Notes: generated by a model not told the origin, from the letters alone. A stretch of DNA of 63,057 nucleotides, filler included, from an uncultured bacterium (GCA_964448115.1; 4 parts of 4 records of this genome joined end to end with filler, not necessarily neighbours in it), one strand, 5' to 3'; numbered from the whole stretch's first letter, positions 22,256-63,057 are shown. Numbers and translations: made by a program.

Positions 22256-22355
22256 NNNNNNNNNNNNNNNNNNNNNNNNNNNNNNNNNNNNNNNNNNNNT
22301 TAATTAATTAANNNNNNNNNNNNNNNNNNNNNNNNNNNNNNNNNNNNNNNNNNNN
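22256..22355. other. Artificial contig linker
   Basis: N44-TTAATTAATTAA-N44, stop codons in all frames. Confidence 0.97.
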
Positions 22356-22357
22356 CT

Positions 22358-22954
22358 GTTGTTGACCTTGACAACATCTGGGGCATGGACTACCACGCGG
22401 TCTATAAGTATCCAGAGACAGAGCCGAGCTTGGATTTTGGTGGAATTGATATTGAAGCCATGCCTTCAGGAGAGATATGGGTAACAGGATATAAATCTAT
22501 AATATATTATTTTAATGGATTTCAATGGTTCATTCCTTTAATTGTTTTCCCAAGTAATAGAAACAATGGCTTTAGTCCAATTCACTTTATCCACCCTAAT
22601 TCAATATTAGGACGAATTAGATTTTTCACAGATGAAGGAAGTTACACCAAAATGTATATAATAGAAAAAACAGGTCCTCTACTATTCGGTTATGGTTGTT
22701 CCAATATTAGAAAGAATATATTATCTAAAATTGATATAATTGCCTATATTCCATCAAGTACATATAAAGTTGAAATTTATTATGATGGTATTCCAACAGG
22801 AATTATTTTATTAGAAAATGATAACAATTATGGTATTTATAGCTATTACTCTTTAATTCAAGCTAATGCAGAAGGTAAATATCTTCTTGAATTGAAAGTT
22901 CAAAACATTGGTAATAAAATACATACTGCACCGTATTTGGAGGTATATCCATGA
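22358..22954 (+). CDS. 5'-truncated protein ending in a divergent WPYL-type C-terminal domain
   Basis: Frame is open from the contig edge; VEIYYDGIPTGIIL...GKYLLELKV...APYLEV. Confidence 0.7.
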   Translation, partial: VVDLDNIWGMDYHAVYKYPETEPSLDFGGIDIEAMPSGEIWVTGYKSIIYYFNGFQWFIPLIVFPSNRNNGFSPIHFIHPNSILGRIRFFTDEGSYTKMYIIEKTGPLLFGYGCSNIRKNILSKIDIIAYIPSSTYKVEIYYDGIPTGIILLENDNNYGIYSYYSLIQANAEGKYLLELKVQNIGNKIHTAPYLEVYP

Positions 22955-38227: not shown

Positions 38228-38287
38228 TCTGGGGGAGGGTGTAATCAATATCCCGCCTTTGGTATGATAGGCTGGGATAGTTAATAA

Positions 38288-43638: not shown

Positions 43639-43738
43639 NNNNNNNNNNNNNNNNNNNNNNNNNNNNNNNNNNNNNNNNNNNNTTAATTAATTAANNNNNN
43701 NNNNNNNNNNNNNNNNNNNNNNNNNNNNNNNNNNNNNN
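43639..43738. other. Artificial contig linker
   Basis: N44-TTAATTAATTAA-N44. Confidence 0.97.
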
Positions 43739-43749
43739 GAATCCCCCAC

Positions 43750-43854
43750 CACGATATCACGGTATCAAGGTAGCACGGTATTACGATATCACGGTATCCC
43801 GATAGCACGGTACTACGGTACCACATCCTAATCCTTCCTCGTGCCTTGGTGGTT
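43750..43854. repeat. Degenerate 8-nt tandem repeat (CACGGTAT-like) followed by a 33-nt conserved tail
   Basis: About nine 8-nt units, then CACATCCTAATCCTTCCTCGTGCCTTGGTGGTT (43822-43854). Confidence 0.75.
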
Positions 43855-43888
43855 CACCCCACTAAAGCCTACTAATGGAGGTAGTTCA

Positions 43889-45301: not shown

Positions 45302-45338
45302 GCACCCCGCCAAGATTGGGGAAAGGAAGGGGGGCAAC

Positions 45339-45425
45339 CACGAAGCCACGAAGCCACGAAGCCACAAAGCCACGAAGCCGGTATCACGGTATCACATCCT
45401 AATCCTTCCTCGTGCCTTGGTGGTT
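45339..45425. repeat. CCACGAAG tandem repeat plus the same 33-nt tail (45393-45425)
   Basis: Five CCAC(G/A)AAG units, then a sequence identical to 43822-43854. Confidence 0.75.
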
Positions 45426-45431
45426 AAAAAG

Positions 45432-45459
45432 TTGACTAGCCTGAGAATTACTATACAAT
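45432..45459 (+). promoter_or_regulatory. Putative sigma70 promoter of the sensor kinase
   Basis: TTGACT-N16-TACAAT, about 30 nt upstream of the ATG. Confidence 0.45.
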
Positions 45460-45490
45460 TACTTGTAAACAATAAAGATATTTATGGATT

Positions 45491-48217: not shown

Positions 48218-48226
48218 AAGAGATCC

Positions 48227-48310
48227 ACGCCCCCCCTCCTCCCCCCCCCCCATTCATGGGGGGGATAAAGGGGGGGGCTTTCAAGGAGAATCACGCAAAG
48301 ACGCAAAGAA
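48227..48310. repeat. C-run/G-run palindromic element plus a family A module
   Basis: C-run ATTCAT G-run ATAAA G-run, then CACGCAAAGACGCAAAGA. Confidence 0.55.
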
Positions 48311-48387
48311 GAGTGGATTTTCCTAAAGCCTCAAGGAGAGCTTGAGGGCTTTCAATTATCTGTTGAACAATATAAACTACTCCCCAG

Positions 48388-51141
48388 ATGGCCGAGGAAG
48401 CACAGGTAAGACAACTGCTCCAGAAGCTGCTTTATACGCAGTGGTCTGACACGCAGGATCGCCACAACCTCCTTGCCGAGATCCTTAATCTAAAGGTAGA
48501 TCTGCTCAAGTACATGATCAATATCATCAAGGGAAGCCAGGGCAGCAAGGACAAGGCTAAACAAAAGGAACGAATGAAGGCTGTCTGCGAGCTTATCAAG
48601 CTGGCTGGCAATCGCAACTGGTGCAAGCCTCTGCTGAGCCTGCTTCCGAGGGTCGATGATATCACGGCAAAAGCGCTTATGGATGCAGTCGGAGCCATAT
48701 TCGATCCCCGTGCGATAAGCGATCTTATCGAGATGCTGAATCACCGCTCAGCGGAAGCTCGCAGGCGGGCAAGCAGGCTGCTGATCAAGGTCGGGGGAAA
48801 GACCGGCTTCAGGGAGCTTAAGAATGCGCTGGGTCGCATAGAATGGCGCGATAGGTCAGAGGTCATACTGACCTTTACCAAGATGGGCGGCTCAAGGGCT
48901 ATCGAGACCCTTGAAGAGATACTACAAAGCGGCAGCGAGGATGACCGGATTTTTATCATCAAGCTGCTGTCTCGCTTCAGGGAGGATGATGTAATCGATA
49001 CGCTTCTGTTGGCTGCCAAGCAGCCGATGCCGGCGGTTCGCATGGCTTTGGCGCGCGTGCTGGGAGAACTTGAATCGAACAAGGCTTCCGAAGCGTTGCA
49101 TCTGCTGGCAAAGGACAGCAGCATCGATGTCAGCGTGCTTGCCATTCGAAGCCTTCAAAGGCACAAGAAGCCAAGCACATTGGAGGTTCTAGCCTCGCTG
49201 GTCGAATCCAAGAACAGTACCATACGTAGGGAAGCTGTAAAGTCGCTGGGCAGCTTAGAGCCTAGGCTGATCACCGGCGCTGCCATAGATATCCTGATGG
49301 ATTCGCTTGCCGACCCGGATGATGGAGTGAAAAAGGAGGCTGCTGATGCGCTTTATGCGCTTGGAAAAACGGACAAGGGAAAGCTGGGCAAGATGCTGCT
49401 CACCAGCCTGGTCGATAAGGATGATGAGGTCATCGAGGGCGTTATCGGGGTGCTCAATCGCCTGGGCGGAAGCCTGAAGATATGGAAGGAGACCATAAGG
49501 AAACTGTGCAGCGATGACTATCGGGTGCAGCGGCAGGCAGAGCATATAATCATTGAGCTTGATGACCCGGATATAAAAAGGATTTTGATAGAACTTATCG
49601 ATGATCCCGATGAGCTGGTGAGAAGGTTCAGCATCTCTCTTTTGGGCAAGATGAAGGTTACCGAGGCTGGCGATCGCATAGTCGAGGCTCTCTCCGATCC
49701 CAACTGGTGGGTGGCGGAGACCGCGATAGATGCTCTGGGTCAGCTCAAGGATCGCTCCTGCGTCCCTCGACTGATAAGCCTGCTCGAGGCGCCGATGAAA
49801 AGAAGAACGGCTATAAAGGTGCTCGGCGAGCTGGATGATCCACGGGCTGTCGAACCGCTTGTGGCACTTTTAGATGAAAAAGACAACCAGGTTCGCCTAG
49901 ATGCCCTGGATGCGCTAGCCAGGCTCGGCAACCCAGCCTGCCTTGATGCGCTAAACAGGCTGCTCAAGGATGCGGACAAGTCGATCCGTCATCGCGCCGC
50001 CCAGGTGATAGCCTCCATAAAACAGCTTAACAGCAACCAAACAATAGATGAAGACCAGGTATACCTGAGCAGCTCCTATGTGAGCGAGCTGGACAAGATG
50101 CTGATGATCGCCTTTGAGCGCAATGCCGAAGACCTGTTCATCGTACCCAATGAAAGACCGATGATAAAGCTGCACGGGGAGATGACACCGCTCGACTTGG
50201 ATGCAATCGACCCTAGATCCTGTGCAAAGATGCTCGGCGAGATAACGAACCCAGCCCAATCCGAGATGCTGCTATCAGAGCGCGATATTGACCTTTCCTA
50301 CGAGCTAAAGGGGATGTGTCGCTTTAGGGTCAACATATTCTTTCAAAGACAGGGGCTGGCAGCGGTATTTCGGCTCATACCGCCGAAAATAAAGACCCTC
50401 AAGGAGCTTGAGCTTCCCGATGTAATCATCGAGCTTACCGAGCTGCATCAAGGGCTGGTGCTGGTAACCGGACCCTCTGGGAGCGGAAAAAGCTCGACCA
50501 TTGCCGCCATGATAGACCGCATCAACGCGCGCCGGGCAGTGCATATCATCACCATCGAAGACCCCATCGAGTATGTCTTTGAGCCGAAGAATTCACTTAT
50601 AGACCAAAGGGAGCTGGAGACCAATACCCGCGATTACCTGCGGGCGCTTCGGGCATGCCTGCGTGAAGACCCCGATGTAATCGTAGTCGGCGAGATGCGA
50701 GACGCAGAGACCATAAGCGCTGCCCTGACCGCTGCCGAGACCGGGCACCTGGTGCTATCCACCCTGCACGCATACTCGGCAGCACAGACAATCGACCGCA
50801 TAATTGACTCATTCCCCCACGAGCAGCACAACCAGGTGCGAACCATGCTCTCAGCCACCCTTAAGGCGGTGATCACACAACAACTCTTGCGCACCGCTTC
50901 CGGGGACAGGAGAGTCCCCGCCGTCGAGGTGATGCTGGTCAACGATGCAATAGAGCACCTGATCAGGGAAGGAAAGACATACCAGATACCCTCGGTGATG
51001 GCAACCCATACACAAAGCGGGATGCAGACAATGGACATGGCGCTTCATCGGCTGATAAAGCGTGGCATCGTGCACCCCGTGGAGGCTTACATCAAGGCGC
51101 ACAATAAAAAGGAATTCGAGGAGCTGGTGAAAAAGGCGTGA
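48388..51141 (+). CDS. HEAT-repeat protein fused to a PilT/PilU-type retraction ATPase
   Basis: About 550 aa of PBS-lyase-like HEAT repeats; RFRVNIF, GPSGSGKS, TIEDPIE, LREDPDVIVVGEMRD, GHLVLSTLH, AIEHLIRE. Confidence 0.92.
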   Translation: MAEEAQVRQLLQKLLYTQWSDTQDRHNLLAEILNLKVDLLKYMINIIKGSQGSKDKAKQKERMKAVCELIKLAGNRNWCKPLLSLLPRVDDITAKALMDAVGAIFDPRAISDLIEMLNHRSAEARRRASRLLIKVGGKTGFRELKNALGRIEWRDRSEVILTFTKMGGSRAIETLEEILQSGSEDDRIFIIKLLSRFREDDVIDTLLLAAKQPMPAVRMALARVLGELESNKASEALHLLAKDSSIDVSVLAIRSLQRHKKPSTLEVLASLVESKNSTIRREAVKSLGSLEPRLITGAAIDILMDSLADPDDGVKKEAADALYALGKTDKGKLGKMLLTSLVDKDDEVIEGVIGVLNRLGGSLKIWKETIRKLCSDDYRVQRQAEHIIIELDDPDIKRILIELIDDPDELVRRFSISLLGKMKVTEAGDRIVEALSDPNWWVAETAIDALGQLKDRSCVPRLISLLEAPMKRRTAIKVLGELDDPRAVEPLVALLDEKDNQVRLDALDALARLGNPACLDALNRLLKDADKSIRHRAAQVIASIKQLNSNQTIDEDQVYLSSSYVSELDKMLMIAFERNAEDLFIVPNERPMIKLHGEMTPLDLDAIDPRSCAKMLGEITNPAQSEMLLSERDIDLSYELKGMCRFRVNIFFQRQGLAAVFRLIPPKIKTLKELELPDVIIELTELHQGLVLVTGPSGSGKSSTIAAMIDRINARRAVHIITIEDPIEYVFEPKNSLIDQRELETNTRDYLRALRACLREDPDVIVVGEMRDAETISAALTAAETGHLVLSTLHAYSAAQTIDRIIDSFPHEQHNQVRTMLSATLKAVITQQLLRTASGDRRVPAVEVMLVNDAIEHLIREGKTYQIPSVMATHTQSGMQTMDMALHRLIKRGIVHPVEAYIKAHNKKEFEELVKKA

Positions 51142-51157
51142 GGCGTAAGGGGTTTTT

Positions 51158-51271
51158 AACCACAAAGACTCAAAGACACAAAGAAAGAAAAAGAGGATCA
51201 CGCAAAGACGCAAAGAACGCAAAGAAGAAAGGAGAATCACGCAAAGACGGTACCACGGTATCACATCCTAA
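51158..51271. repeat. Dispersed repeat family A copy
   Basis: CCACAAAGACTCAAAGACACAAAG, CACGCAAAGACGCAAAGA, CGGTACCACGGTATCACATCCTAA. Confidence 0.75.
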
Positions 51272-51273
51272 AG

Positions 51274-51495
51274 ATGAAAACAAAGGCTCAGATGGTAGTT
51301 AAACAGAATAAATCCCTGGTAAAAAAGTGCATTAAAGACGGCGAGGTGGAATACTTCGATGAGTGCAAATGGGGATTAGCAGACGAGCTCTTCGGCTTTA
51401 TGTTATGCGCACCAAGAAAAACAGTGGGGAGGGTATCCACTCCTTTACCTGGGTGTCGCAATCTATTTGCTGGTCTTTTAGGTTTCAAGGCATAG
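51274..51495 (+). pseudogene. Possible truncated transposase N-terminus
   Basis: Short ORF; QNKSLV...GEVEYFD...ADELFGF resembles N-termini of some DDE transposases from memory only; no catalytic part present. Confidence 0.25.
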
Positions 51496-51706
51496 AGATC
51501 GCTATTTTATCATTTAAGCACTGACTACCAGCGCCTCGGTGTCTCTAATTACGTTAATTTTACCAAGGCCAGCCACTGATTCCGATTCCCCAGGCGGCAA
51601 ATAACCGCGAGATCAAGCACATTTATGAAGCTATCATAGACTCTTGGTCATTATCAACCACTTATGACGCATTTACTGTCTGAATCACAGAAGTCATATT
51701 TATCAC

Positions 51707-51735
51707 TTGACATCAAGAATTAAACTTGGTATAAT
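51707..51735 (+). promoter_or_regulatory. Consensus sigma70 promoter upstream of the Kelch gene
   Basis: TTGACA-N17-TATAAT with an extended -10 TG. Confidence 0.7.
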
Positions 51736-51807
51736 AATATATGATAATGATTACAAAATAACAAAAAAAATAAGTACACAACTAGAAAATAGAGATGGTT
51801 ACTTAAT

Positions 51808-54039
51808 ATGTTGCATTTAGTATTAAAAACAGGTCTTATTTTCAGCCATATAAATAAAACTATAAAATATATATCACTATTTATTATAATCATATTTTAT
51901 CATTTTTCGTATGGAGAATCACTAAATTTTTTATCTTGGAGGACATTATTGCCTTTTTATAAAAATAGATACTCCTCAATTTATAAAGGAAAATTAATAT
52001 TTGATCCTAACTTAAAAAACCTCGTAATGGTTAATCTAAATGGAGAGGTTTGGAAATATAATGAATATAAATGGGATTATATATACATCTATAAAAGTAC
52101 TGTTTATCCAAAGTATTGCGAAACAATTTTTGACGATGAAAAGGATTGTATTTGTGCTGTTGATTCAGGTATGAATGTGTTTTATCTTATGGATAGTGTT
52201 TGGCAGAGAGTTGTCCCTACCAGTAAACCCGAATTTATACCTCGCTTAAATTTCGGAATCTGTTATGATGCAGATAGAAAAAGGATTATCTTATTTGGAG
52301 GTTATTTTAATGGCTCTCCATATTATTTAAATGATACATGGGTATTTGATGGAACTAACTGGAATGAAATAACAACTCACCCTATTCCTCCCGCAAGGGC
52401 TGGACATCAATTGATATATTATAATTATCGTCATAAAGCTGTCTTATTTGGAGGTACAAGAACAAATGGCAGATTAAACGATACATGGGAGTTTGACGGT
52501 AAAGATTGGTATGAGCTCAACTGTACAGTAGCTCCATCTATAAGATCAAATCATCAAATGGTTTTTGTACCACATAGAAATATAATTCTTTGCTTCGGCG
52601 GTTATGGCTATCCATGTTCCTATGATCTTTATGATACATGGGCATATAACAACCAGGGATGGCATGAGATCAAAACACATCGTTATCCACTATTTACCGG
52701 ACCTATTGGATATGATCCGATTCAAGACAGAATTGTAATGATTGGACCAAATTCAGAAACATGGGAATTTGATTTCCAAGATTGGAATCAAATTAGACCA
52801 CCTCTTCCATATCCTAAAGGTAGAAGAGAACATGCTATGGCTTATGACGAGGACAGAGGTACAACTGTTATGTTTGGCGGTTGGGGAATATCGGATGATG
52901 ATGGAACTTGGGAATTTACAGATCATAAATGGGTAAACAATGATACAAGAAATTTATCATCCTCTATTGAAGAACCTCAAATGGCTTATGATAGCACTCG
53001 GAAAAAAATGGTGATTTTCAGGGGGGATTTTGTTAGTGAAACATGGGAGTATAATTCGATAGACTGGGAACTAAGAGTTGAGCATGCTCCTTGTCATCCA
53101 TATTTACAGTCGATAGGAGGATGTTTCCGATTTGATTGTGCAATGACTTATGACAAAATATTAAGGGGATGTGTGCTTTATGGAGGATATTTTTGGTGGA
53201 ATATGGAAGGTTATACCCTCAATGATATTTCGTTATATGATGGAACAAATTGGATATTATTAGGGTTACAGCAAACTGCAATTCGACATACCCTCACTTT
53301 CCATGAGGGCTTGAATCGAACAGTACTGCTTCAAGCTCCAAACTCTAATGAATTATACTATCTAGACTGTGCCCCATACGGTTTAGATTGTAGCTGGTCA
53401 GCATTACCAAATCCAAATCCACCAGAGCCGAGATCTAATTCCGTTATTATATATAACTCCGCAAGACGCTCATTATTTCTGTTTGGGGGTGGCTTGGAGG
53501 ATAATACTGTTTATCACGATGCGATTAAAATGTATAATGAATTATGGGAATATAAAGATTATCGATGGATTAAATATGATTTATCATTAAAACCATGTCC
53601 TATATGGAAGCATTGTATGATATATGATAAGAAGGAGGATGAAGCTATTCTCTTCGGTGGTGAGTATATTGAAATTAAGCCAGATACTTGGATTTTATAC
53701 AATCCATTGTATTTGGAGGGCTATTTTAGACCTAAGGTATTTCTTGCCGGTTTTTGGGATACTAGACTTGTAGAAGGTGAACATGGAAACTTAAAAATTT
53801 TTTTAATAGCACAAGCCTGGAAAGACCTACAAGTGAAAAAGGCGATAATTCCAAACTCCAGACATCCAGAACCAGACATTATAATCCCCGGTATAGACGG
53901 TGATGATAATCATTATTTCTATCTAGAGGTCGAACTAACAATGGCACCTTCCTCTGAGAAATACCTGGTTCAATTTCTTGTAGAGGATTCCATTGGATAT
54001 TATTCAGAACCATGGCCTTATCTTGTTGTTCATCATTGA
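51808..54039 (+). CDS. Kelch-like beta-propeller secreted protein with C-terminal WPYL domain (AT-rich gene)
   Basis: Repeats YD..R...LFGG...NDTWxFDGxxW; ends PKVFLAGFWDT...YLVQF.VED..G..SEPWPYLVV. Confidence 0.85.
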   Translation: MLHLVLKTGLIFSHINKTIKYISLFIIIIFYHFSYGESLNFLSWRTLLPFYKNRYSSIYKGKLIFDPNLKNLVMVNLNGEVWKYNEYKWDYIYIYKSTVYPKYCETIFDDEKDCICAVDSGMNVFYLMDSVWQRVVPTSKPEFIPRLNFGICYDADRKRIILFGGYFNGSPYYLNDTWVFDGTNWNEITTHPIPPARAGHQLIYYNYRHKAVLFGGTRTNGRLNDTWEFDGKDWYELNCTVAPSIRSNHQMVFVPHRNIILCFGGYGYPCSYDLYDTWAYNNQGWHEIKTHRYPLFTGPIGYDPIQDRIVMIGPNSETWEFDFQDWNQIRPPLPYPKGRREHAMAYDEDRGTTVMFGGWGISDDDGTWEFTDHKWVNNDTRNLSSSIEEPQMAYDSTRKKMVIFRGDFVSETWEYNSIDWELRVEHAPCHPYLQSIGGCFRFDCAMTYDKILRGCVLYGGYFWWNMEGYTLNDISLYDGTNWILLGLQQTAIRHTLTFHEGLNRTVLLQAPNSNELYYLDCAPYGLDCSWSALPNPNPPEPRSNSVIIYNSARRSLFLFGGGLEDNTVYHDAIKMYNELWEYKDYRWIKYDLSLKPCPIWKHCMIYDKKEDEAILFGGEYIEIKPDTWILYNPLYLEGYFRPKVFLAGFWDTRLVEGEHGNLKIFLIAQAWKDLQVKKAIIPNSRHPEPDIIIPGIDGDDNHYFYLEVELTMAPSSEKYLVQFLVEDSIGYYSEPWPYLVVHH

Positions 54040-54220
54040 AGCAGGAAATATGCGATTAATCTAAAAACTAATCCCAAAGTAACTATCTTTTTTAGGGAAT
54101 CTAAACAAATTATTATGGTGCTCAAATATACTTAATGTGATAAACTATAAATTTACAATATAAACATAAATTGAAATAGATGGTCTGAAGCAGTTCCTTG
54201 AGCCTTTTGTAGTTTTGCAT

Positions 54221-54463
54221 TCACAGGGAAATCTTCTCCTCCAAGTCTTTAGGTACATGGATCATCTTCCTTTTGCAATTTACCAATATGGACAGGCAAA
54301 GAAAGATATGCAGCTCGCCTTTTTGGCATTTACATCCTTTCTTCCCGCACTTTCGAGCCATAGTTACCAGGCTTCCGCAGAGAAACGGATAGTTATGAGC
54401 CAGCCTTGTCAACTCTGCTCTAGCGGCTCGTTCATTTGCCGAGAGAAATCCGCGATGTTTCAT
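54221..54463 (-). mobile_element. DUF6788-like IS accessory gene remnant
   Basis: GSLV...RKCGKKGCKCQKGELH metal-binding motif; TTGACA-N17-TATAAG promoter on the minus strand at 54488-54516. Confidence 0.65.
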
Positions 54464-54817
54464 AGCACCCCCTAACTGTTAGTATTTCTTATAACAGAAT
54501 GTAAATAATTTGTCAAGGGGAGAATAAGTGCGATTTTGCTTATTGGTAAAAAATGTATAGGGATTGCCTATCTAAATATATTCAGAGTGTAGCCTTGCGG
54601 AAGTTCTGTATTTTTCGAGAATTGTTTGAATTATGCGCTCTCGGAGTGCTATAATAGCGCTACCGACAACCTACTGCTCGCTTTCGTCATAAAGAACGAT
54701 AATTCCTTGACCGATATCGACGCCGATAGCCTGGCGAGGTTTACCTAAGAGATATACAGCACATCTGCTTCCTCGTCATATTCCCAGCTCAACATCGAGT
54801 CACTTTCAAGGATTTTT

Positions 54818-54917
54818 NNNNNNNNNNNNNNNNNNNNNNNNNNNNNNNNNNNNNNNNNNNNTTAATTAATTAANNNNNNNNNNNNNNNNNNNNNNNNNNN
54901 NNNNNNNNNNNNNNNNN
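54818..54917. other. Artificial contig linker
   Basis: N44-TTAATTAATTAA-N44. Confidence 0.97.
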
Positions 54918-55213
54918 ATACCGCAATACTGTGATACAAGGTTAACTGTTTCAGCGCTGAAACAGTAACTACATCACTCTATCACTTTGCAAGTTTACTG
55001 GATGCCCGCCTGCGCGGGATAGGAAGGGGAGAGTACTTAGTTTTGATGATATCGTCCAGTATATTTTATTAACCACATCCATAAAAAAGACCCTAGATCT
55101 TCAGGATAACATAGACGAGCTATATCCGAGCCTAGAAGAAGATTACATAAAGTTCTAGGCTTCCAGGGTGGGGAGGAGGTAGGTGCCTGGTAATCTCTTA
55201 GCAAGAAGCCAAT

Positions 55214-55663
55214 CTAGCGAGCCAGCACCTCAGTAGTCTCCTGTTGGATCTTGGCGCTCGCCTCAGCCTTTATCTTAACAGTATCCAGGATAGATTGGAT
55301 TAGCTCCTTGTTAGCCTCATCAAGGGAGAGGTACTTCTTGATGAATTCCTTGTCTTCCCTGCTAAGCTGTTCTTGTGTGTCGCTGTTGATAAGTTCCAGT
55401 ATGATTTCCCTTATTTTAGGATTTCTGGTTCTCTCGTAAAGCAGGTCGAGGTACATGTTTTTAAGGTCGATCTTGTATTCCTCAGAGATCTTTACTAGCA
55501 GGTTATCGCTTGGGTGTGCGGTCTTCATTTTCAGCCTGGAAATGTATGGAGCCACAACCCCTAGTGTATCCGCAAGCTGTTGCTGGCTCATATTGTGGTT
55601 TTTCTCGATTATATCCTGAAGATACTCGGCGAACGGTTTAGGTGTCCTTTTCAAGTTATCCAT
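55214..55663 (-). CDS. XRE-family helix-turn-helix transcriptional regulator
   Basis: MSQQQLADTLGVVAPYISRLK...PSDNLLVKIS HTH; C-terminal EDKEFIKKYLSLDEANKELI typical of XRE repressors; start probably MDNLK at 55663. Confidence 0.85.
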   Translation of the reverse strand: MDNLKRTPKPFAEYLQDIIEKNHNMSQQQLADTLGVVAPYISRLKMKTAHPSDNLLVKISEEYKIDLKNMYLDLLYERTRNPKIREIILELINSDTQEQLSREDKEFIKKYLSLDEANKELIQSILDTVKIKAEASAKIQQETTEVLAR

Positions 55664-55711
55664 ATTTATAATATAGGACATTTTTACAGGATATGCAAGC
55701 ACCAAATTACC

Positions 55712-55780
55712 ATAACTAATCAGTAAGTAAATACAAGATAACATTACTTACCTGTTAGTTATGATAAGTTACTGAGTAAC
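55712..55780. promoter_or_regulatory. Candidate operator sites in the XRE / ftsA-like divergent intergenic region
   Basis: Inverted repeat ATAACTAAtcaGTAAGTAA (55712-55730) / TTACTTACctgTTAGTTAT (55744-55762); palindrome GTTACTGAGTAAC (55768-55780). Confidence 0.5.
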
Positions 55781-55954
55781 AATTCAGTAATCCTCGGCTT
55801 CACTTGATGATTATTATGAATACTTGATCCAAATGGTTTCTGTGAATAATTTGGTTTGTTAGGGTTGAAAATTGGAAAAATCGTAAAATAATCAATTAAA
55901 TCAAATAGTTAACTTCATTTAAGGCAATTTTTGAAAAATAGGAAAAATTACCTA

Positions 55955-55983
55955 TTGATTTTTCTTGATGTAGGTATTATATT
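55955..55983 (+). promoter_or_regulatory. Putative sigma70 promoter for the ftsA/ftsZ-like operon
   Basis: TTGATT-N17-TATATT, in an AT-rich region where chance matches are likely. Confidence 0.35.
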
Positions 55984-56038
55984 GAAGATGTGAATGATCT
56001 CTATTATGGATGGGTGAACTTTTTTCATTGGGAGTTTT

Positions 56039-57262
56039 GTGATGGAATATGCGGTTATAGCTAGAAATGATTCAGTAGTCATTATCCAAGGAGCACTCCA
56101 AGTCACTAAAACTGGCAATCAAGAATATATAATCGGAAGATCTACCAACTTAAAGGCGGTTGACTATCGCATAGATCACGATGATCCTAATATAGATTAT
56201 CTTTCAAAGCAGATTAAGGGTGATCTCCATATCATCGCACCGGATCTTGGATTCGGAATTATACAAAAACAAGAAAAAATTAAAAACCATAATAAATCTA
56301 GAATTTTATTTACTGAAAAATTATTTAGAGCAAAAATAAAAAAATTGAAAAAGGAAATAAAGGAAAGCAATCAAAAAGGTAATATAATTGGTAACTACAA
56401 ACTTGATTATGTGCTTGGTGATAATATATTTTACGATAAATATAAATCATTTCTTTATAAAAAATTCGATGTCATTGAGATCCAGATATCGGGATTTCCT
56501 ATAGATTACAATGATCTAGTTAAATATTACTTACAGTTCGAGGAACTGGATTTAAGACCTGACAGTATAATACCTCTTTGTGTAGCTATTGAATATGCTA
56601 TGGATTTAAGATCCATTAAAGAACCAGTAGGTGTTTTTTACCAAGAGGAGGATTTCTCCATCGTCTTAAGATATCATGAGTGTCATATAACTGATCTCGT
56701 TTACTCGGATTTGGGATTTCAAGGGCTATATAACATTATTGCGGAGTTATTCTACACTAATCCTATTGAAGCCAAGAGGATATTCAATGAATGTTCTTGC
56801 CTGCCAGATATTGAAAATACAACTTTTACTTTGGAGTTTCCAGGAATCGATGACCGTGATCATAAAATTAACTCATTGAGTGCATCATTTTATCTAAATG
56901 AAGCGTTTAAAACATATCTTATGAAGGTAACTCGCTCAAATTTATTCAAGTATCCTGATAAAAGAATCGATACTTTATATTTAGTACCGGCAGGAATCCA
57001 AACTAGAGAAGATATCTTAAAAGCAATAAGGGAGATACTCGGGGTACATGTGGAGGAATATAATATTAAACAACAAAAGGCACTTGATGATCATAATGAG
57101 ATGATATTACTTGGAGTGCTCAAATATATTAACTCAGGGAGAATGTTAGAAACTAGGTTAAATAAAGACATAAGACAACTGGAGCGGAGCATTAAAAAAG
57201 AGCATCGCAGGTTGGCAAAGGATAATCGTAATCGATTATCTGAGAGTACGGTTGCTCTGTAA
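56039..57262 (+). CDS. Highly divergent FtsA-like (actin-fold) protein lacking ATP-binding motifs
   Basis: Colinear resemblance to FtsA (DYVLG, NDLVK..LDLRPDSIIPLCVA, KEPVGVF, LGFQGLYNIIAELFYTNPIEAKRI, LEFPGID, LYLVPAG, LLGVLKY); 407 aa; directly upstream of an FtsZ-like gene. Confidence 0.6.
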   Translation: MMEYAVIARNDSVVIIQGALQVTKTGNQEYIIGRSTNLKAVDYRIDHDDPNIDYLSKQIKGDLHIIAPDLGFGIIQKQEKIKNHNKSRILFTEKLFRAKIKKLKKEIKESNQKGNIIGNYKLDYVLGDNIFYDKYKSFLYKKFDVIEIQISGFPIDYNDLVKYYLQFEELDLRPDSIIPLCVAIEYAMDLRSIKEPVGVFYQEEDFSIVLRYHECHITDLVYSDLGFQGLYNIIAELFYTNPIEAKRIFNECSCLPDIENTTFTLEFPGIDDRDHKINSLSASFYLNEAFKTYLMKVTRSNLFKYPDKRIDTLYLVPAGIQTREDILKAIREILGVHVEEYNIKQQKALDDHNEMILLGVLKYINSGRMLETRLNKDIRQLERSIKKEHRRLAKDNRNRLSESTVAL

Positions 57263-57280
57263 ATAAGAGGGGGTAATGTC

Positions 57281-58534
57281 ATGATAAAGGTAGAGGAATC
57301 TAATGAGAACATCGCTAGCAGGGGAAGCGCAAGGATAAAAATAGCAAGCCCATCGCTTCTCATAAGAGCAAAAGGGTTAGGCTTTGGGATCGATACCTTG
57401 CGAATGGCGGAAATGTATGTCGAGGATCTAAAGGGTGAAAATGAAAGACTATTGCATGTCATTTGCGTGGATGAATTAGCCTTAGAGAACTCGAACCTAT
57501 CGAACAGGATGCTCTTAAGATTGCCTGAGAGAGATCAGTATATCCGGGTGGAAAAAGATCCTTGCGCTGCGAGGAGTGCTTTGAGTTCTAGGATGGATGA
57601 TATCAGTAATTGGCTAGGTGACGAAATCGAGGTGGTCATTCTATTTGGCATAATGCAGCAGAAAAACTGCGGAATGTATGCAGAGGCAGCTCGCTACCTT
57701 GCCTTTGAAAAAAATAAGCATGTATGCGCAGTTATTGGATTACACCAGGACTTCGATTTTACTAAGGACATAGAACCAAGCAATAATTCCAAATCTCACG
57801 AGAATCATAGCGATGAACCCAAATGCCACAAAAATCATGAGAATACAATCAGAGCGGTAAAACTATCTTTGTGGGAAATGAAGCATTATTGTCATGGGCT
57901 TTTCATTCTCGATGGCTATCGCCTTGGCAATTCTACAAACACGGAACAAGACAAGATCCCACTAGGTAAAAAAGGTCCTATGTTTGAGCAAATGATCATG
58001 GAGCGGGTAGATTGTCTTTTAGAACTTGCAAATCAACCACATAAGACAGAGATAACCTTTGGCACGCTACTAGCAGTACTTCAAGATAAGGGACTAGCAT
58101 ACTTCAGCGTATCAAGAAAATCTGGCGTGAACAAGGTGATCAATATCATTCGGGAGGTTACTGAGGATGCCCTGTGTTTCAAGTCGAGGTTATCCGGTGC
58201 AGAGCAGGTCTTGGTCGTTTTTTCAAGCAAGGACGGCATCTATGTAAGTGAATACCAGCAAATAATGGACGCCATATACAGTAAAGCAAGCTATAATTCA
58301 GCAGGAATCCCAATCGATGTTGCTTACCTGCAAAAGGAATTAAGCCCGGGAGAATTAGAAGTCGCGGTCATAGCCACCGGTAGATACACCGATTGCGAAC
58401 GGTATCCGATGGAGAATATGATAGGCTTCAAGCGGGTCGAGATAGTAGATATATTCAAAAAGAATAAAGAAGATGATTCTAACTTGATAAAGCAGGATGA
58501 TAGATACCAAGCTATGGCATCCAAGAGGCAATAG
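57281..58534 (+). CDS. Highly divergent FtsZ/tubulin-like protein lacking the GGGTGTG signature
   Basis: Colinear with FtsZ: KGLGFG, CVDELALENS, DPCAARSA, EMKHYCHGLFILDG, QPHKTEITFGTLLAVLQDKGLA, LSGAEQVLV, EVAVIATG; GAGGGG RBS. Confidence 0.75.
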   Translation: MIKVEESNENIASRGSARIKIASPSLLIRAKGLGFGIDTLRMAEMYVEDLKGENERLLHVICVDELALENSNLSNRMLLRLPERDQYIRVEKDPCAARSALSSRMDDISNWLGDEIEVVILFGIMQQKNCGMYAEAARYLAFEKNKHVCAVIGLHQDFDFTKDIEPSNNSKSHENHSDEPKCHKNHENTIRAVKLSLWEMKHYCHGLFILDGYRLGNSTNTEQDKIPLGKKGPMFEQMIMERVDCLLELANQPHKTEITFGTLLAVLQDKGLAYFSVSRKSGVNKVINIIREVTEDALCFKSRLSGAEQVLVVFSSKDGIYVSEYQQIMDAIYSKASYNSAGIPIDVAYLQKELSPGELEVAVIATGRYTDCERYPMENMIGFKRVEIVDIFKKNKEDDSNLIKQDDRYQAMASKRQ

Positions 58535-58787
58535 CCAATCATGATAAAAATATGTTTACCTGCCGAATCTACTCTCCTGCCTTCTCAATCCCAAAGTGGG
58601 CATATCCAGCCCTGCCTCCTTTCTTTAAGCCGGGGGCTTATTCCCCATAATGCCCCCGGCTCAACCGAAGCCATATCCAAGATTGGAGGGAGAAAAGGTG
58701 AGGAAGTTTCCTTCAAGGCGCGATACCCTCATGAAAATACGGCTATAATAGGTAGAAAAAGCTAGCCTTACACCTTAATTGTTACTT

Positions 58788-60434
58788 CTATCTATAGATA
58801 ACCAGGTACTCGCCGGGGTAGATGTACTTTCTGTTGTACAGGTTGTTCCAACGGATGATCTGGCGCTGAGATACACCGAACTTGCGGGCAATCTTATAGA
58901 TACTGTCTCCCTTTCGAACCCTATATCTGATTACACGAGCTTCATTATTGCCACCATTTTTAGTGCTTTTATATGATTTGCTCGAGTATTGTCTCTTGTC
59001 ATATCGCAGCGGTCCAGCCGGGATGATGATGGTTTTGCCAGCGCGAAGGCTCCTGGGATCGTAAATATTGTTAGCCGCCTGGATTGCCTCCACGCTGGTA
59101 TGGTATCTACGTGCTATGCTAATTAGCGTCTCACCCCATCGCACCTTGTGGAACTTGAAACTGGTAATTTTATTTTTAGGGATCTTACTGTACTCAGCCA
59201 GGAATCTATCTTTTTTGCCCTTTGGAATGCGCAGAGTATAGGATTCAACATTGCCTGGGGTACACCATCTTCTTAATTCCGGGTTTAATAAGCGGATCAC
59301 ATCAAGGCTTGTCCCGGCGCATCTTGCTGCCGTCTCCAGGTCAAAGAATGCACAAACCTCTACCTCATCGAAAACCATAGGCTCATCATAATCGATGTCA
59401 AATCCGAAGCTCTCTGGGTCTTTGCCTATAATAGCAGCAGCATAAAACGCTGGCACATAGTGCCTGGTTTGCGCCTTGAAGAACCTGCGTTCTCTAAGCT
59501 CCCAGAAGTCCTCTGTTTGTCCCACTCTCACGCATCTTTTGGTTCGATTCTCTCCGCCGTTATATGAAGCAAGAGCCAGTTCCCAACTTCCGAAATAGTC
59601 ATATAACTCCTTGAGATACTTACAGGCAGAGTGTGTCGATTTAATCGGGTCGCATCTTTCATCGACCCACCAGTCGATCTTCAATCCATAGCGCTGTCCT
59701 GTTGGAGCGATGAATTGCCACAAACCCCTTGCATTTGCCCATGAGTAAACTCTGTCCCTGAAGCCGCTCTCGATGAGAACTAGCCAAACCAGATCAGCCG
59801 GCATACCATGCTCATATAGGATATCCAGGAGAATATTCATATACTTACCTGATCGTTTAAGAGCGCGTGCTATAGCTTTCCTCTTGACGCCGGTGAATGA
59901 ACGGATCACATCACGCACCTCTCGGTTATAGACTAGCTCCATCGGATAAGCATGGGGGCTATCCATCAGCTCCTTCTCGGCTATCTCAGGTATATTGGTA
60001 AGATAATCTTCCATCTCCGCTTCCCAGTCAAAGAGATGGAAGCTAAGGTCGGTAAGGCTTCCTTCATCCTGCACCAGATCCTCGACCAGAACTTCCTCGG
60101 GATCAATAGGGGATGGATACTCGTTATTAGTTATCGATTGTAGTTCATTTATATAAGCGAGTAGCGATAATCTGAGATCCTCGGTGTCATCCTCTGCAAT
60201 GAATTCATCCTCTGATTGTGGGGTCCTTAGATCCATGTCTCCGTTGGGCAGATAGGCATAGTCGTTGTTCACCTCAATATGTTCGCTTTTTGCGCTGGAG
60301 ACTCTAGGAGTGCTCCTACATCCACTATACGCAAGAGAAAATATAATCAACAAAGCGCAAAAAACTGCGACCGCCCGCATTGCCAGACATTCTAATATCA
60401 GCCCAAATCCCTTTTTTGTGCCGATTCCGTTCAT
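58788..60434 (-). CDS. mltD: MltD-like lytic murein transglycosylase with two LysM domains
   Basis: Possible lipobox YSG-C; LIESG (catalytic Glu), ARGLWQFI, LALASYNGG, QTRHYVP, LNPEL; two LysM domains. Confidence 0.9.
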   Translation of the reverse strand: MNGIGTKKGFGLILECLAMRAVAVFCALLIIFSLAYSGCRSTPRVSSAKSEHIEVNNDYAYLPNGDMDLRTPQSEDEFIAEDDTEDLRLSLLAYINELQSITNNEYPSPIDPEEVLVEDLVQDEGSLTDLSFHLFDWEAEMEDYLTNIPEIAEKELMDSPHAYPMELVYNREVRDVIRSFTGVKRKAIARALKRSGKYMNILLDILYEHGMPADLVWLVLIESGFRDRVYSWANARGLWQFIAPTGQRYGLKIDWWVDERCDPIKSTHSACKYLKELYDYFGSWELALASYNGGENRTKRCVRVGQTEDFWELRERRFFKAQTRHYVPAFYAAAIIGKDPESFGFDIDYDEPMVFDEVEVCAFFDLETAARCAGTSLDVIRLLNPELRRWCTPGNVESYTLRIPKGKKDRFLAEYSKIPKNKITSFKFHKVRWGETLISIARRYHTSVEAIQAANNIYDPRSLRAGKTIIIPAGPLRYDKRQYSSKSYKSTKNGGNNEARVIRYRVRKGDSIYKIARKFGVSQRQIIRWNNLYNRKYIYPGEYLVIYR

Positions 60435-60731
60435 AACACCACTACATTTAGTAGTTTACTGGTAAGTAAATTACAACAAGATAGGATGATTTTCAATGAT
60501 AGAATGATAATTTTTACAAGAAACGCCTAGTTGGCTGCTAATTCAACGATCATTCGATCAAGTAGTATGTTTAATAGACCAACATTAATAATCCTCGGTT
60601 CACAAATAAGACCCCATCCTGCACCATCTACCTCCAGATCGACCTGAACGCAGCCTTGCGCCAGAAATTGATAACCGAACTCGAATATTGGATTCTGGTG
60701 TGCAAAAAGGTGTTGAGATTAATGATGGGCA

Positions 60732-61889
60732 CTATGTTTTATTACAGGATAGCTTGGTTAGCAATTTGGTTATGAAATATCTAAAATTACCCGGTTTATC
60801 AGCAATCGAGTTATCGTTATCAATCCCCATTCTAAGTTGCCTGTTCTGTAGATACTTGGCCATGCCACACTGTGAACAATATGCGGGAAGCTGCCAGGAT
60901 ATAAATGCCTTACGCAGTCTGGTGAAAACATCGCCGTACCAGATCTCCTCCAGGCTCTTTTCCATAACATTCTCTTTGGTGGCATCGGCTACGCAGCACG
61001 GCGCCACTCCGCCATCGGTGCGAATGACCATGCCGATCCATGGCTCAAAGCAGGGCGCGTGAACGAAGGATCCCTTAGCGATATCGCCCAAATCATCCTC
61101 CAACAACGCATTCATATCATCAGCAGCTCTTATGAAGTCCTGTTCAAGAAATCCTTCCAGGTTGGTTCCGACCCCCACCTCTCTTGATGTATCAAGGAAG
61201 CTGGGTATAAGCTGCTGGAACTGCTTTCTTTGTAAATCAGACAATGCAAGGCTCGCCCCTAGCTCATGGTAAACATTGAGCGGCTGGATGAAAAGATATC
61301 CAACGCCATTGTCCGCTGAATAGCGAAGCATATCGCCGATCAAACGATAATTATCGCTGCAAAGCACCAGGTGGAAGCTCAAGAAAGGCTTGTCGCTGCC
61401 GAGCCTTCTCTTGATATTCTTAAATCGCCTCAAGGTCGCCTGTACAAGCTCGAATGCCTTGTCATTTCGCCTTAGCTTGTTATGCACGCTGCTAATTGGC
61501 GCATCGAGGCTTATGGTGATCTCGTCCCAGCCAGCATCGACAAGCTCATTCACAAAGCGTTCAGGGAATATGGTGCCATTAGTAATCATTGAGCCTCTGC
61601 CACCTACCTGTTTGATCGTGAGCATCAGTTGCCTGGTAAGATTGAAGCGATAAAGAGGCTCGCCGGCGCCGACTATCTGCCAATGCACGGCACCTAGCTT
61701 CGCTCCCTCGTGAACCAGCTCGATCATACGCCCATCAGGCAGACCGGGGTTTCTGGTCTCGATGGCTCTCCAGCGGCAGAAAATGCATTCAAGGTTGCAA
61801 AGATCGGTGGGATTAAGCTCAATGCGATAGGGCGGGACTTTTTCTCCTCGCATCCAGCCCTTCAGGCGGGTTATTATTTCTTTATCCAT
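60732..61889 (-). CDS. Radical SAM protein with SPASM/twitch domain
   Basis: CNLECIFC; GAGEP; ISLDA; CFEPW...GGVAPCC...CSQC. Confidence 0.92.
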   Translation of the reverse strand: MDKEIITRLKGWMRGEKVPPYRIELNPTDLCNLECIFCRWRAIETRNPGLPDGRMIELVHEGAKLGAVHWQIVGAGEPLYRFNLTRQLMLTIKQVGGRGSMITNGTIFPERFVNELVDAGWDEITISLDAPISSVHNKLRRNDKAFELVQATLRRFKNIKRRLGSDKPFLSFHLVLCSDNYRLIGDMLRYSADNGVGYLFIQPLNVYHELGASLALSDLQRKQFQQLIPSFLDTSREVGVGTNLEGFLEQDFIRAADDMNALLEDDLGDIAKGSFVHAPCFEPWIGMVIRTDGGVAPCCVADATKENVMEKSLEEIWYGDVFTRLRKAFISWQLPAYCSQCGMAKYLQNRQLRMGIDNDNSIADKPGNFRYFITKLLTKLSCNKT

Positions 61890-62100
61890 TACAATACTTC
61901 TTCTTTATGCCTTTGCATTTGTTATTCTATCACATATTGAGCCCTTAGCCTATCACCAACGGAAGAGGGCAGGGGAGAGGAGCTTTACTCTCCTCTATCA
62001 CTCTATCACTTTATCTTTGTGCAGAGTCTCGATGGATCTGAATCCACGAACTTTCCAGGAAGCATGGTGGTTCATAACCGTTTTTGACTGTAGTTTTTAG

Positions 62101-62129
62101 TTGACATTATGAAATGATTTTTTTATGCT
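62101..62129 (+). promoter_or_regulatory. Putative sigma70 promoter
   Basis: TTGACA-N17-TATGCT, 60 nt upstream of the ATG. Confidence 0.55.
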
Positions 62130-62189
62130 CTATATGTTAAATAGGTAAGGAATATGGTCTTTTCTAAATCATCAAAACTGGAGGACAAG

Positions 62190-63057
62190 ATGATGAGCAA
62201 GGCATTATGCTCGGTATCACTTAGCCTTCTGGCAGCGATGATAATTTTAGCTGTGCCGGCCATAGCTCAAGGCACCACGATCACCGTCGGGCACGGCGGC
62301 GGATACGACTACGGCACCATAACAGCGGCACTTGCAGCAGCAACATCGGGAGATACGATAACCGTCGCCGATGGAACTTATAATTACAATAGTGGAGAGT
62401 CTTTTCCGCTAGTTATGAAGCAAGGCGTTACACTGCAAAGAGAAAATGAAAGCATTCAGCCAATAATCGCAGGAATATCAACCCAATCGGTGATAGAGGT
62501 CGAAAACATATCCGATCTGAACAACACCATCATCGATGGATTTATAATCCGCGATGGCGGTGGTCATGATGTAGAAGGCGAACGATATGGTGGTGGGATC
62601 TTCATGTATCTTTCATCGATAACCATCATAAACTGCAAATTCACTGCAAACAACGCTAAGTATGGCGGCGGAATGTTTCTAGATAAATCAAGTCCTAACA
62701 TTATTGATTGTGAATTCGAGGATAATGAAGCTTCAAGTTATGGAGGTGGCATATATTGCAAGAATAACTCCAATGCGAACTTGTATAACTGCACTTTTAT
62801 CAATAACAGCGCATCAAATAATGGTGGCGGGATGTATTGCTATGACTCTTCCCCCACCTTGACCGGTTGCACCTTCAGCGAAAACAGCGCATCTTATGAT
62901 GGTGGCGGGATGTATTGCTGTTATTCTTCCCCCACCTTGATCGATTGCACCTTCAGCGAAAACAGCGCATCTTATGGTGGCGGGATGTATTGCTATTCTT
63001 TTTCTTCCCCCACCTTGACCGGTTGCACCTTCAGCGATAACAGCGCATCATATTCTG
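62190..63057 (+). CDS. 3'-truncated secreted DUF1565 / right-handed beta-helix (Pmp-like GGG repeat) protein; absent from the supplied ORF track
   Basis: GGAGG RBS; MMSKALCSVSLSLLAAMIILAVPAIA signal; TITAALAAATSGDTITVADGTY...GESFPL; repeated N.A..GGG.YC..SSP....C.F..N; frame open to the window end. Confidence 0.85.
   Translation, partial: MMSKALCSVSLSLLAAMIILAVPAIAQGTTITVGHGGGYDYGTITAALAAATSGDTITVADGTYNYNSGESFPLVMKQGVTLQRENESIQPIIAGISTQSVIEVENISDLNNTIIDGFIIRDGGGHDVEGERYGGGIFMYLSSITIINCKFTANNAKYGGGMFLDKSSPNIIDCEFEDNEASSYGGGIYCKNNSNANLYNCTFINNSASNNGGGMYCYDSSPTLTGCTFSENSASYDGGGMYCCYSSPTLIDCTFSENSASYGGGMYCYSFSSPTLTGCTFSDNSASYS
62805..63057 (+). repeat. 78-nt coding tandem repeat (26-aa beta-helix coil)
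   Basis: Units start with AACAGCGCATC at 62805, 62883, 62961 and 63039. Confidence 0.9.

Follow-up and report, generated by a model that had tools for sequence, protein, structure and literature searches.

The stretch of DNA analysed here (63,057 nucleotides from an uncultured bacterium, GCA_964448115.1; hereafter the window) carries at positions 55214-58534 an XRE-family gene that diverges from two adjacent open reading frames (ORFs), ORF1 and ORF2, lying in the order of ftsA and ftsZ. ORF2 descends from bacterial FtsZ and keeps its collinear two-domain layout; judged by its sequence, it has lost the residues for GTP binding (those of T1 in part, and those of T2-T6), the T7 residues that trigger hydrolysis and the tail on which FtsA docks. 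ORF1 is probably a very diverged FtsA-type protein of the actin fold, devoid of the phosphate-1, phosphate-2 and adenosine glycine motifs, that is, with no ATP site. Both are real genes of one operon, and we give an even chance to the interpretation that they form a non-enzymatic pair derived from cytoskeletal proteins, whose members bind each other and which is possibly a repressor-gated modulator of division. The genes are located as follows.

55214-55744, minus strand: XRE-family (HTH_3) repressor-like gene, 176 amino acids (aa) as the longest ORF
55745-56038, no strand: divergent intergenic region, 27.9% GC, with promoter-like hexamers toward ORF1
56039-57262, plus strand: ORF1, 407 aa (406 aa from the ATG at 56042, the form present in the protein collection)
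57281-58534, plus strand: ORF2, 417 aa, FtsZ-derived, two domains

Results

ORF2 descends from FtsZ

When ORF2 was compared by hhalign with nine FtsZ sequences, its residues 58-380 were collinear with residues 60-347 of FtsZ over 288 columns, with a probability of 99.05% and an E-value of 1.9e-18. Moreover, in a MAFFT alignment with 35 FtsZs the collinearity reaches strand S1 and the T1 loop, running overall from S1 to S10. Both alignments reproduce the blocks of FtsZ that had been named in an earlier reading of the window made without any search (the sequence-only reading), NTD being aligned to CVD, PExGxxAA to PCAARSAL, GAxGVL to GAEQVL and VTVIATG to VAVIATG. Among 304 six-frame ORFs of the window, ORF2 is the sole match of a local FtsZ hidden Markov model (HMM), with an E-value of 1.2e-11.

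In the family libraries, TIGR00065 of NCBIfam matches residues 233-370 of ORF2 (E 5.5e-8, 32.5 bits, far under its cut-off of 295.2 bits) and PF12327 (FtsZ_C) gives an E-value of 1.7e-4 and 22.3 bits against a cut-off of 27, while PF00091 gives no match to ORF2, even at E 10 with the N-terminal half alone. The sequence matches of ORF2 in the PDB at E ≤10 are FtsZ chains in 32 of 32 cases, all of them within the C-terminal domain (58076-58384, plus strand), the best-conserved part of the protein, where the identity to FtsZs is 23% on average and 33% at most. A model of ORF2 built with AlphaFold2 (AF2) from the alignment with the 35 FtsZs reached a predicted local distance difference test score (pLDDT) of 77.8 and a predicted template modelling score (pTM) of 0.77, and its comparison by Foldseek gave FtsZ in all 48 rows listed (best E 4.3e-21, TMt 0.79-0.85). 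Because the modelling alignment consisted of FtsZs, this fold is to be taken as FtsZ-compatible and is no independent proof. The structural check proposed with the sequence-only reading therefore returned FtsZ in each of the rows listed, from a model that is partly circular.

Degenerate nucleotide-binding and T7 motifs in ORF2

The replacements found in ORF2 are given below in the residue numbering of E. coli FtsZ.

T1 loop: G17, G19 and G20 kept, G22 and N24 replaced by D and L (GLGFGID in ORF2)
T2 loop: N43 and T44 replaced by C and V, D45 kept
T3 loop: G67, G69 and G71 replaced by Y, R and E
T4 tubulin signature, 57647-57673, plus strand: GIMQQKNCG (residues 123-131) in place of GMGGGTGTG; G105, G106, G107, T108 and G109 replaced by M, Q, Q, K and N
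T5 loop: P134, E138 and G139 replaced by D, T and K
T6: N165 replaced by G
T7 synergy loop, 58046-58066, plus strand: KTEITFGT region; N207, D209 and D212 replaced by E, T and T, F210 kept
Tail: P375 replaced by M; MAFFT puts ...YQAMASKRQ at the IPxFL columns
57749-57850, plus strand: lineage-specific insertion of about 34 residues (157-190) at the position of the T5 loop, rich in His, Asn and Ser and with one Cys

The T4, T1, T7, T2 and tail motifs are close to invariant: among 81 FtsZs, GGGTG[TSA]G is found in 78, GG[GAS]G.N in 79, N.DF.D in 80, N[TS]D in 81 and the tail motif in 76, and none of them is found in ORF2. The degenerate T4 (GIMQQKNCG) and T7 (TEITFGT) and the missing IPxFL tail described in the sequence-only reading are thus borne out by hhalign, MAFFT and the motif counts, and its description of the second ORF as nucleotide-dead agrees with the absence from ORF2 of T1, T2, T4, T7 and tail motifs that 76 to 81 of the 81 FtsZs have. 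The residues of T7 trigger hydrolysis in the neighbouring subunit, and the sequence of ORF2 argues against both binding and hydrolysis of GTP.

The conservation pattern of ORF2 is inverted relative to a normal FtsZ. ORF2 is 19% identical to FtsZs in the N-terminal domain, 12% in the H7-T7 segment and 23% in the C-terminal domain, compared with 58%, 55% and 46%, respectively, among FtsZs themselves. It keeps 21 of the 67 columns with a conservation of at least 90% in the 35 FtsZs, and the glycines and hydrophobic residues of the structural core are retained in its C-terminal domain. The insertion at the T5 loop corresponds to a gap in all 35 FtsZs, and the pLDDT of the model falls below 50 at residues 175-183 within it; it may bind metal or serve as a disordered linker.

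ORF1 is probably an FtsA-type protein

The relationship of ORF1 to FtsA is far more remote than that of ORF2 to FtsZ. ORF1 has no family in Pfam (at E ≤1 and also at E ≤10), NCBIfam, PADLOC (E ≤1) or PHROGs, its phmmer matches in the PDB are chance matches only, and BLASTP gives no match with E. coli FtsA (E 0.26). It was compared with a profile of 56 FtsA sequences, which had been collected as upstream neighbours of ftsZ across 80 diverse genomes. In hhalign, residues 225-366 of ORF1 align with residues 234-388 of E. coli FtsA, a region that comprises domains 2A and 2B and the adenosine motif, with a score of 26.9-27.0 and a P of 0.0071-0.0085. None of 150 shuffled versions of ORF1 reached this score (maximum 24.7), and the negative controls gave P 0.27 for ORF1 against FtsZ and P 0.42 for ORF2 against FtsA. 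When the N-terminal half of ORF1 is used alone, residues 144-201 align with residues 95-151 of FtsA (P 0.0089), and HMMER picks the same segment. Also, ORF1 ranks at the top of the 304 ORFs of the window with a local FtsA HMM, with a non-significant E-value of 0.76. A feature search of the ESM Atlas points in the same direction, each match listed with a Pfam family belonging to FtsA, SHS2_FTSA or PilM_2 (4+1+1 matches, with one more row below 0.9). The claim that the first ORF follows FtsA is thus weakly supported by hhalign (P of about 0.008), but not by any match in Pfam, NCBIfam, PADLOC or PHROGs.

Among the 56 FtsAs, D.G[TS] is present in 51, D.G[GAS]G in 45, [TSA]GG in 48 and the GG dipeptide in 56, and ORF1 has none of the four. 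The absence of an ATP site claimed for the first ORF holds regardless of the alignment. As to the particular replacements proposed, LVPAG is indeed paired with LTGG of the adenosine motif, but the pairing of YQEED with DIGGG lies outside the confident hhalign region; in a relaxed alignment of ORF1 with FtsA, the DIGGGT hairpin is treated as deleted. The C-terminus of ORF1 is a long and highly charged helix in the predicted secondary structure, as read by eye.

A predicted complex between ORF1 and ORF2

A direct interaction between ORF1 and ORF2 is predicted. The complex was modelled with ESMFold2, with no alignment for ORF1 and with its own FtsZ-based alignment for ORF2, together with three controls. 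The interface score ipSAE was 0.66, 0.60 and 0.64 (median 0.64), compared with 0.00 for the best control. The mark set for ipSAE is reached by most solved complexes (58 of 80) and by few mismatched pairs (2 of 110); these counts hold only roughly for this pair because an alignment of its own was used. The runs agreed in at least 80% of the contacts, the pLDDT of the partner was at least 71, and ORF1 was folded at a pLDDT of 78-83 in every complex run, controls included. The predicted contact involves the following regions.

56750-56902, plus strand: predicted contact surface of ORF1 for ORF2, residues 238-288, equivalent by hhalign to subdomain 2B of FtsA
57524-57886, plus strand: predicted contact region of ORF2, residues 82-202, with the N-domain helices 94-103, 130-143 and 184-203

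The predicted interface residues of ORF2 (82, 92-103, 134-142 and 191-202) belong to three helices on one face of the N-terminal domain. For FtsA, S267/I268 of the E. coli protein are described as lying in subdomain 2B (10.1101/2022.10.31.514644), and the S12-S13 part of 2B is described as involved in the FtsA-FtsZ interaction (PMC4281207). In canonical pairs, the tail of FtsZ is held by 2B, whereas here the tail motif is gone and the predicted contact is made with a globular domain. No solved complex with this geometry is known to us, and for this reason it seems unlikely that the prediction merely reproduces a known structure. The idea of a non-enzymatic pair, put forward in the sequence-only reading, is in part supported by this predicted complex, which passes its controls.

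ORF1 and ORF2 form an operon divergent from an XRE-family gene

The three ORFs, with the XRE gene divergent and ORF1 and ORF2 adjacent, are present in the ORF listing at 55214-58534 as claimed. Given the base composition, the chance that the frames stay open is 5e-16 for ORF1 and 3e-13 for ORF2, Shine-Dalgarno-like ribosome-binding sites are present (GGGAG 7 nt 5' of the ORF1 ATG and AGAGGGGG 5' of ORF2), and the gap between both ORFs is 18 nt, which together argue that ORF1 and ORF2 are real genes. Long frames, ribosome-binding sites and the predicted interface are also what speaks for the proposed selection on an intact pair, and the collections searched hold no orthologue from which a ratio of nonsynonymous to synonymous substitutions (dN/dS) could be obtained. 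Of the two ORFs, described alike as AT-rich, ORF1 is so (32.8% GC, 28% at third codon positions), but ORF2 is not, its 42.5% being equal to the contig average of 42.4%.

In the source sample, independent Logan contigs are identical to the window at 54943-57263 and 57240-59000. They stop and restart in the spacer between ORF1 and ORF2 (57240-57263) with an overlap of 24 nt, and no alternative path or loose end is seen there; the junction of the two ORFs is therefore based on the original assembly and this overlap.

The XRE protein, whose true start is possibly an internal Met at codon 22 or 28, matches PF01381 (HTH_3) over residues 49-94 (E 6.9e-7, 29.6 bits against a gathering cut-off of 23). 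It also matches the RstR subfamily (E 3.8e-8, below the cut-off), the transcriptional regulator phrog_8 (5.9e-10) and, in PADLOC, HTH_VI (6.8e-8) and capH (4.1e-6), and its match to the DicA model is weak (E 0.044). In sequence, then, it resembles phage repressors. Next to this gene there is a cluster of repeats that would be a putative operator.

55704-55790, no strand: operator-like repeat cluster, consisting of a 27-nt imperfect inverted repeat over the annotated XRE start and of TTACTGA-N8-TCAGTAA

The arms of the inverted repeat (55704-55730 and 55744-55770) are 81% complementary, and three of the eight TCAGTAA heptamers of the window are found within 71 bp at 55720-55790. On the plus strand there are promoter-like sites at 55865-55892 and 55955-55983, which are weak candidates, since shuffled sequences contain at least as many of them as the intergenic region does. 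Since the repeats adjoin the XRE gene and lie about 250 bp from ORF1, autoregulation of the XRE gene is the safer inference, and control of ORF1-ORF2 by the XRE protein may be entertained as a hypothesis.

Relatives and occurrence of the pair

Searches that covered about 15 billion proteins and three contig collections found no relative of ORF1 or ORF2. In a word-indexed search of 5.8 billion clusters both proteins retrieve only themselves, and an exhaustive phmmer search with ORF2 against 1.84 billion representatives gave 18 matches at E ≤0.001: ORF2 itself, two tandem-repeat proteins (P0003 and P0004) that were rejected as relatives, being tandem-repeat artefacts, and 15 that cover residues ~186-408 only. 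Among these 15 C-domain matches, the nine that were aligned are FtsZs, the alignment having left out the short P0008, P0010, P0011, P0013, P0015 and P0018. Scans of metagenome, genome and viral contigs for ORF1, ORF2 and the XRE protein gave nothing, as did tblastn with ORF1 against phages and with ORF2 against plasmids. The nine window proteins that were looked up are all singletons at 90% identity, or nearly so, which indicates a poorly sampled lineage.

The DNA of the locus occurs in three sequencing runs of one sample, the probable source, as contigs only, and no RNA run carrying it is listed. Also, no description of a dead FtsA/FtsZ pair was found in open-access papers, supplements left out.

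Genomic neighbourhood and other features of the window

The window consists of four contigs of a metagenome-assembled genome (MAG) laid end to end via three artificial N44-TTAATTAATTAA-N44 linkers, and because of this artificial joining, neighbourhood across a linker is not real evidence.

1-22255: first contig
22256-22355: linker
22356-43638: second contig, 21,283 bp
43639-43738: linker
43739-54817: third contig, 11,079 bp
54818-54917: linker
54918-63057: last contig, 8,140 bp

The locus lies on the last contig, whose edge is 296 bp past the stop of the XRE gene. To the right on the same contig there are a convergent SLT-LysM transglycosylase gene, a radical SAM/SPASM gene and a gene for a secreted repeat protein, whereas the Kelch gene and the others left of 54918 belong to a different contig and their adjacency to the locus is no real evidence. 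No dcw gene is present among the neighbours of the locus on the 8,140-bp contig, so the absence of any dcw context noted in the sequence-only reading is correct for this contig and reaches no further, given the edge 296 bp past the XRE gene. No second FtsZ or FtsA was detected within the 63-kb window by the local HMMs on the 304 six-frame ORFs, and no Rfam family in 54918-58800.

At the start of the last contig (54931-54967) there is a 37-nt element, the core of which is a perfect 20-nt palindrome, present in a single copy in the window and with no Rfam match. Among contigs assembled from the source sample, copies of it with 0-3 mismatches have many different flanks, at a summed depth about six-fold up (53.9 against 8.5). 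It is a dispersed or array repeat and probably caused the break of the assembly at the contig start.

The AT-rich end of the preceding contig (35% GC) encodes a 743-aa Kelch-repeat beta-propeller protein (51808-54039), and on the opposite strand a small Cys-rich DUF6788 ORF (54221-54463; E 9e-6, slightly under the cut-off). Further left on that contig, the 917-aa product of 48388-51141 is a fusion in which a long HEAT-repeat region is joined to a secretion ATPase domain of the PilT/T2SSE type (HEAT_2 E 1e-56, T2SSE E 4e-44). At the start of the same contig there is an isolated ORF (43841-45301), possibly left over from a prophage, that encodes an RNaseH-like nuclease domain of the terminase large subunit (PF17289, E 7e-7); ordinary sensor kinase genes follow it. 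On the second contig, a 3,282-aa ORF (22951-32799) begins soon after the linker, its first 6 kb having 29-43% GC and the remainder about 50%, and at 36464-41913 there are three ORFs of 584-624 aa with no Pfam family at E ≤1e-5.

Discussion

Comparison with known systems

The closest known arrangement is the canonical ftsA-ftsZ pair (TIGR01174 and TIGR00065; PF14450, PF02491, and PF00091 with PF12327), with which the locus shares the gene order, the sizes (407 and 417 aa compared with ~420 and 380 aa) and a tight operon. The collinearity of ORF2 with FtsZ extends from S1 to S10, and the core of the C-terminal domain is preserved; the match of ORF1 to the FtsA half made up of 2A and 2B is weak, and its 2B-equivalent region is where the binding to ORF2 is predicted. 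However, the pair has no nucleotide-binding, T7 or IPxFL motifs, its contig has no dcw genes, an XRE gene diverges from it, the predicted contact is globular-to-globular instead of tail-to-2B, and the cut-offs of the family models are missed widely (32.5 compared with 295 bits).

GTP-dead FtsZ paralogues are already known to recur, ARC3 being one example. This protein of plant chloroplasts is described as having an FtsZ-like domain, probably with no functional GTPase, and as directly inhibiting Z-ring assembly (PMC3494859; 10.1101/2024.01.08.574726). As an FtsZ-derived domain that is described as lacking GTPase function and acting by binding FtsZ, it would be the best functional analogy for a dead FtsZ that works as a modulator, an analogy of mechanism only: ARC3 is eukaryotic, it lacks a partner resembling FtsA, and no relationship between its sequence and that of ORF2 was detected. 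ARC3 is fused to a MORN region. Other highly diverged members of the superfamily, FtsZl1 and FtsZl2, are described as paralogues accompanying a conventional FtsZ and as presumably having no part in cell division (Makarova and Koonin 2010, PMC2875224). According to that description they keep the GGGTG(S/T)G loop and have no recognisable FtsZ C-terminal domain, whereas ORF2 shows the reverse, and membership of ORF2 in these families was rejected for this opposite pattern; the described neighbours of FtsZl1 (vWA, GTPase and OmpA genes) also differ from the XRE, SLT-LysM and radical SAM genes found here.

TubZ/TubR modules combine a GTP-competent tubulin/FtsZ-like motor with a DNA-binding adaptor encoded upstream in the same operon and with centromere repeats. 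A segregation module of this type was rejected for the locus, given that the GTP motifs are lost, the HTH gene is divergent and there is no plasmid or phage relative. On the other hand, the genetic logic of the locus would be like that described for dicA/dicBF of the E. coli Qin cryptic prophage, where a repressor controls a division-inhibitor operon, and the XRE protein is a weak match of DicA. DicB, in contrast, is small and unrelated to FtsZ or FtsA, and no prophage context is seen here.

A possible mechanism and the evidence against it

If the pair works as we suggest, the ORF1-ORF2 complex would form without nucleotide turnover and would not treadmill, and a globular contact, that of the 2B-equivalent of ORF1 on the N-domain face of ORF2, would replace the canonical tail-to-2B tether. 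When the phage-type XRE repressor permits synthesis, the complex would engage the FtsZ/FtsA filaments of the host as a chain-terminating or sequestering subunit, and division would be modulated or blocked. The complex would act by binding because no nucleotide cycling is expected, and by analogy with ARC3 we infer the host divisome to be the most economical target of such a conditional division modulator. That the pair acts by binding and modulates or blocks host division when the XRE protein allows is a tentative proposal, to which we give somewhat less than an even chance. Roles as a division inhibitor, a decoy or a scaffold may be envisaged on the same grounds. A stronger version is a repressor-gated "poison divisome", in which a co-evolved nucleotide-dead FtsA/FtsZ heterodimer, with a new globular interface (2B-like on an H3/H4/H5-type face), would cap or sequester host FtsZ/FtsA polymers on derepression and arrest division; we think this speculative version unlikely.

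Several observations weigh against the non-enzymatic pair and its proposed action. For ORF2, the N-terminal half alone gives the same hhalign alignment with a P of only 0.0069, and the model had an FtsZ alignment as its guide, so that its FtsZ fold is partly built in. With changes in the top pocket as well as in T7, it is doubtful which filament interface could dock on host FtsZ. For ORF1, no HMM library matches it, its single-sequence AF2 model has a pLDDT of 35.8, and a PilM profile of 11 sequences gives a P of 0.062. Moreover, the FtsA profile is matched equally well by two real but unrelated ORFs (scores 27.8 and 27.0) out of 130 with lengths of 300-520 aa, so that the empirical P of the match is about 0.015. 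The offsets of the two hhalign segments of ORF1 are inconsistent with each other; therefore, either one or both are misplaced or ORF1 has undergone rearrangement. The score of the complex is the model's own confidence, and the operator-like repeats adjoin the XRE start, at about 250 bp from ORF1. Finally, no collection searched has an orthologue that would attest purifying selection, so the pair is possibly young or dispensable, and the view is limited to the 63-kb window, while a canonical ftsAZ may exist elsewhere in the genome.

Alternative explanations

The doubts about ORF1 would be accommodated if it were unrelated to FtsA and constituted a lineage-specific partner or adaptor of the FtsZ-like protein, the ftsA-ftsZ appearance being coincidental. 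Besides the profile matches of unrelated ORFs, the PilM result and the conflicting offsets, this explanation is favoured by the missing matches in Pfam, NCBIfam, PADLOC and PHROGs, even at E 1-10, and by the chance nature of those in the PDB. In the named-only search of the ESM Atlas, also, the 10 best family-bearing matches of ORF1 all agree, but a third of shuffled proteins obtain the same concordance. Nonetheless, two different methods, hhalign and ESM features, both pick FtsA/PilM, ORF1 is the first of 304 ORFs for the FtsA HMM, its length (407 compared with 420 aa) and its place directly upstream of an FtsZ homologue fit FtsA, and the predicted interface uses the 2B-equivalent region. We therefore regard an unrelated ORF1 as possible but rather doubtful. 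If the locus were instead a defence or mobile-element module, that is, an abortive-infection effector or a decoy for FtsZ-targeting phage factors silenced by a CapH/RstR-like XRE repressor, the likeness of the XRE protein to phage repressors and capH, the AT content of ORF1 and the intergenic region, far above that of the contig, the orphan status typical of accessory genes and the multi-copy palindromic repeat at the contig end beside the XRE gene would be expected. Against it, PADLOC has no match for ORF1 or ORF2, the 8,140-bp contig has no integrase, att site or phage gene, the GC content of ORF2 equals that of the contig, and phage, plasmid and viral collections hold no relatives, which makes this explanation improbable in our view.

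The two remaining explanations concern the state of the genes themselves. Neutrally evolving, decaying duplicates of ftsA and ftsZ that merely happen to be still open would explain the loss of all catalytic motifs, the missing orthologue to show constraint and the low-complexity insertion in ORF2. But neutral evolution is very unlikely to have left 407 and 417 codons free of stops while identity fell to about 20% (the P values being those given above for the frames), both Shine-Dalgarno sequences are intact, the glycines and hydrophobic residues of the C-domain core are retained and a mutual interface is confidently predicted, so we hold decay to be distinctly improbable. At the opposite extreme, the pair could be the sole FtsA and FtsZ of the organism, extremely diverged and still driving division in a fast-evolving lineage. 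GTP binding is thought indispensable for FtsZ assembly, which argues against this, and so do the neighbouring genes, which are ordinary and readily match Pfam and hence show that the lineage is not generally so diverged, the absence of a dcw neighbour on the contig, and the divergent XRE repressor, atypical for an essential operon. As the search for ftsA and ftsZ covered the 63-kb window, with no other FtsZ or FtsA there, and the singletons at 90% identity among the window proteins point to a poorly sampled lineage, the idea keeps a basis, but we consider it highly improbable.

Significance

At the core of bacterial division stand FtsZ and FtsA, proteins for whose function the nucleotide cycle is considered central. 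What is new in this locus is that the nucleotide sites are lost in an FtsZ-like protein and in its probable FtsA-like partner alike, that T7 and the tail are lost too, and that a globular contact between both is predicted. The weakness of the case is that the pair is a singleton from one metagenome-assembled genome. The pair could serve as a ready-made protein inhibitor or as a probe of the divisome. If the stronger, "poison divisome" version were true, the locus would be a possible stress, mobile-element or abortive-infection switch, and the first bacterial case in which both division cytoskeletal proteins have been recycled together as pseudo-enzymes. More generally, an intact pair with neither nucleotide site and with a new predicted interface would show that cytoskeletal enzymes can be turned into pseudo-enzyme regulators, in a manner comparable to ARC3.

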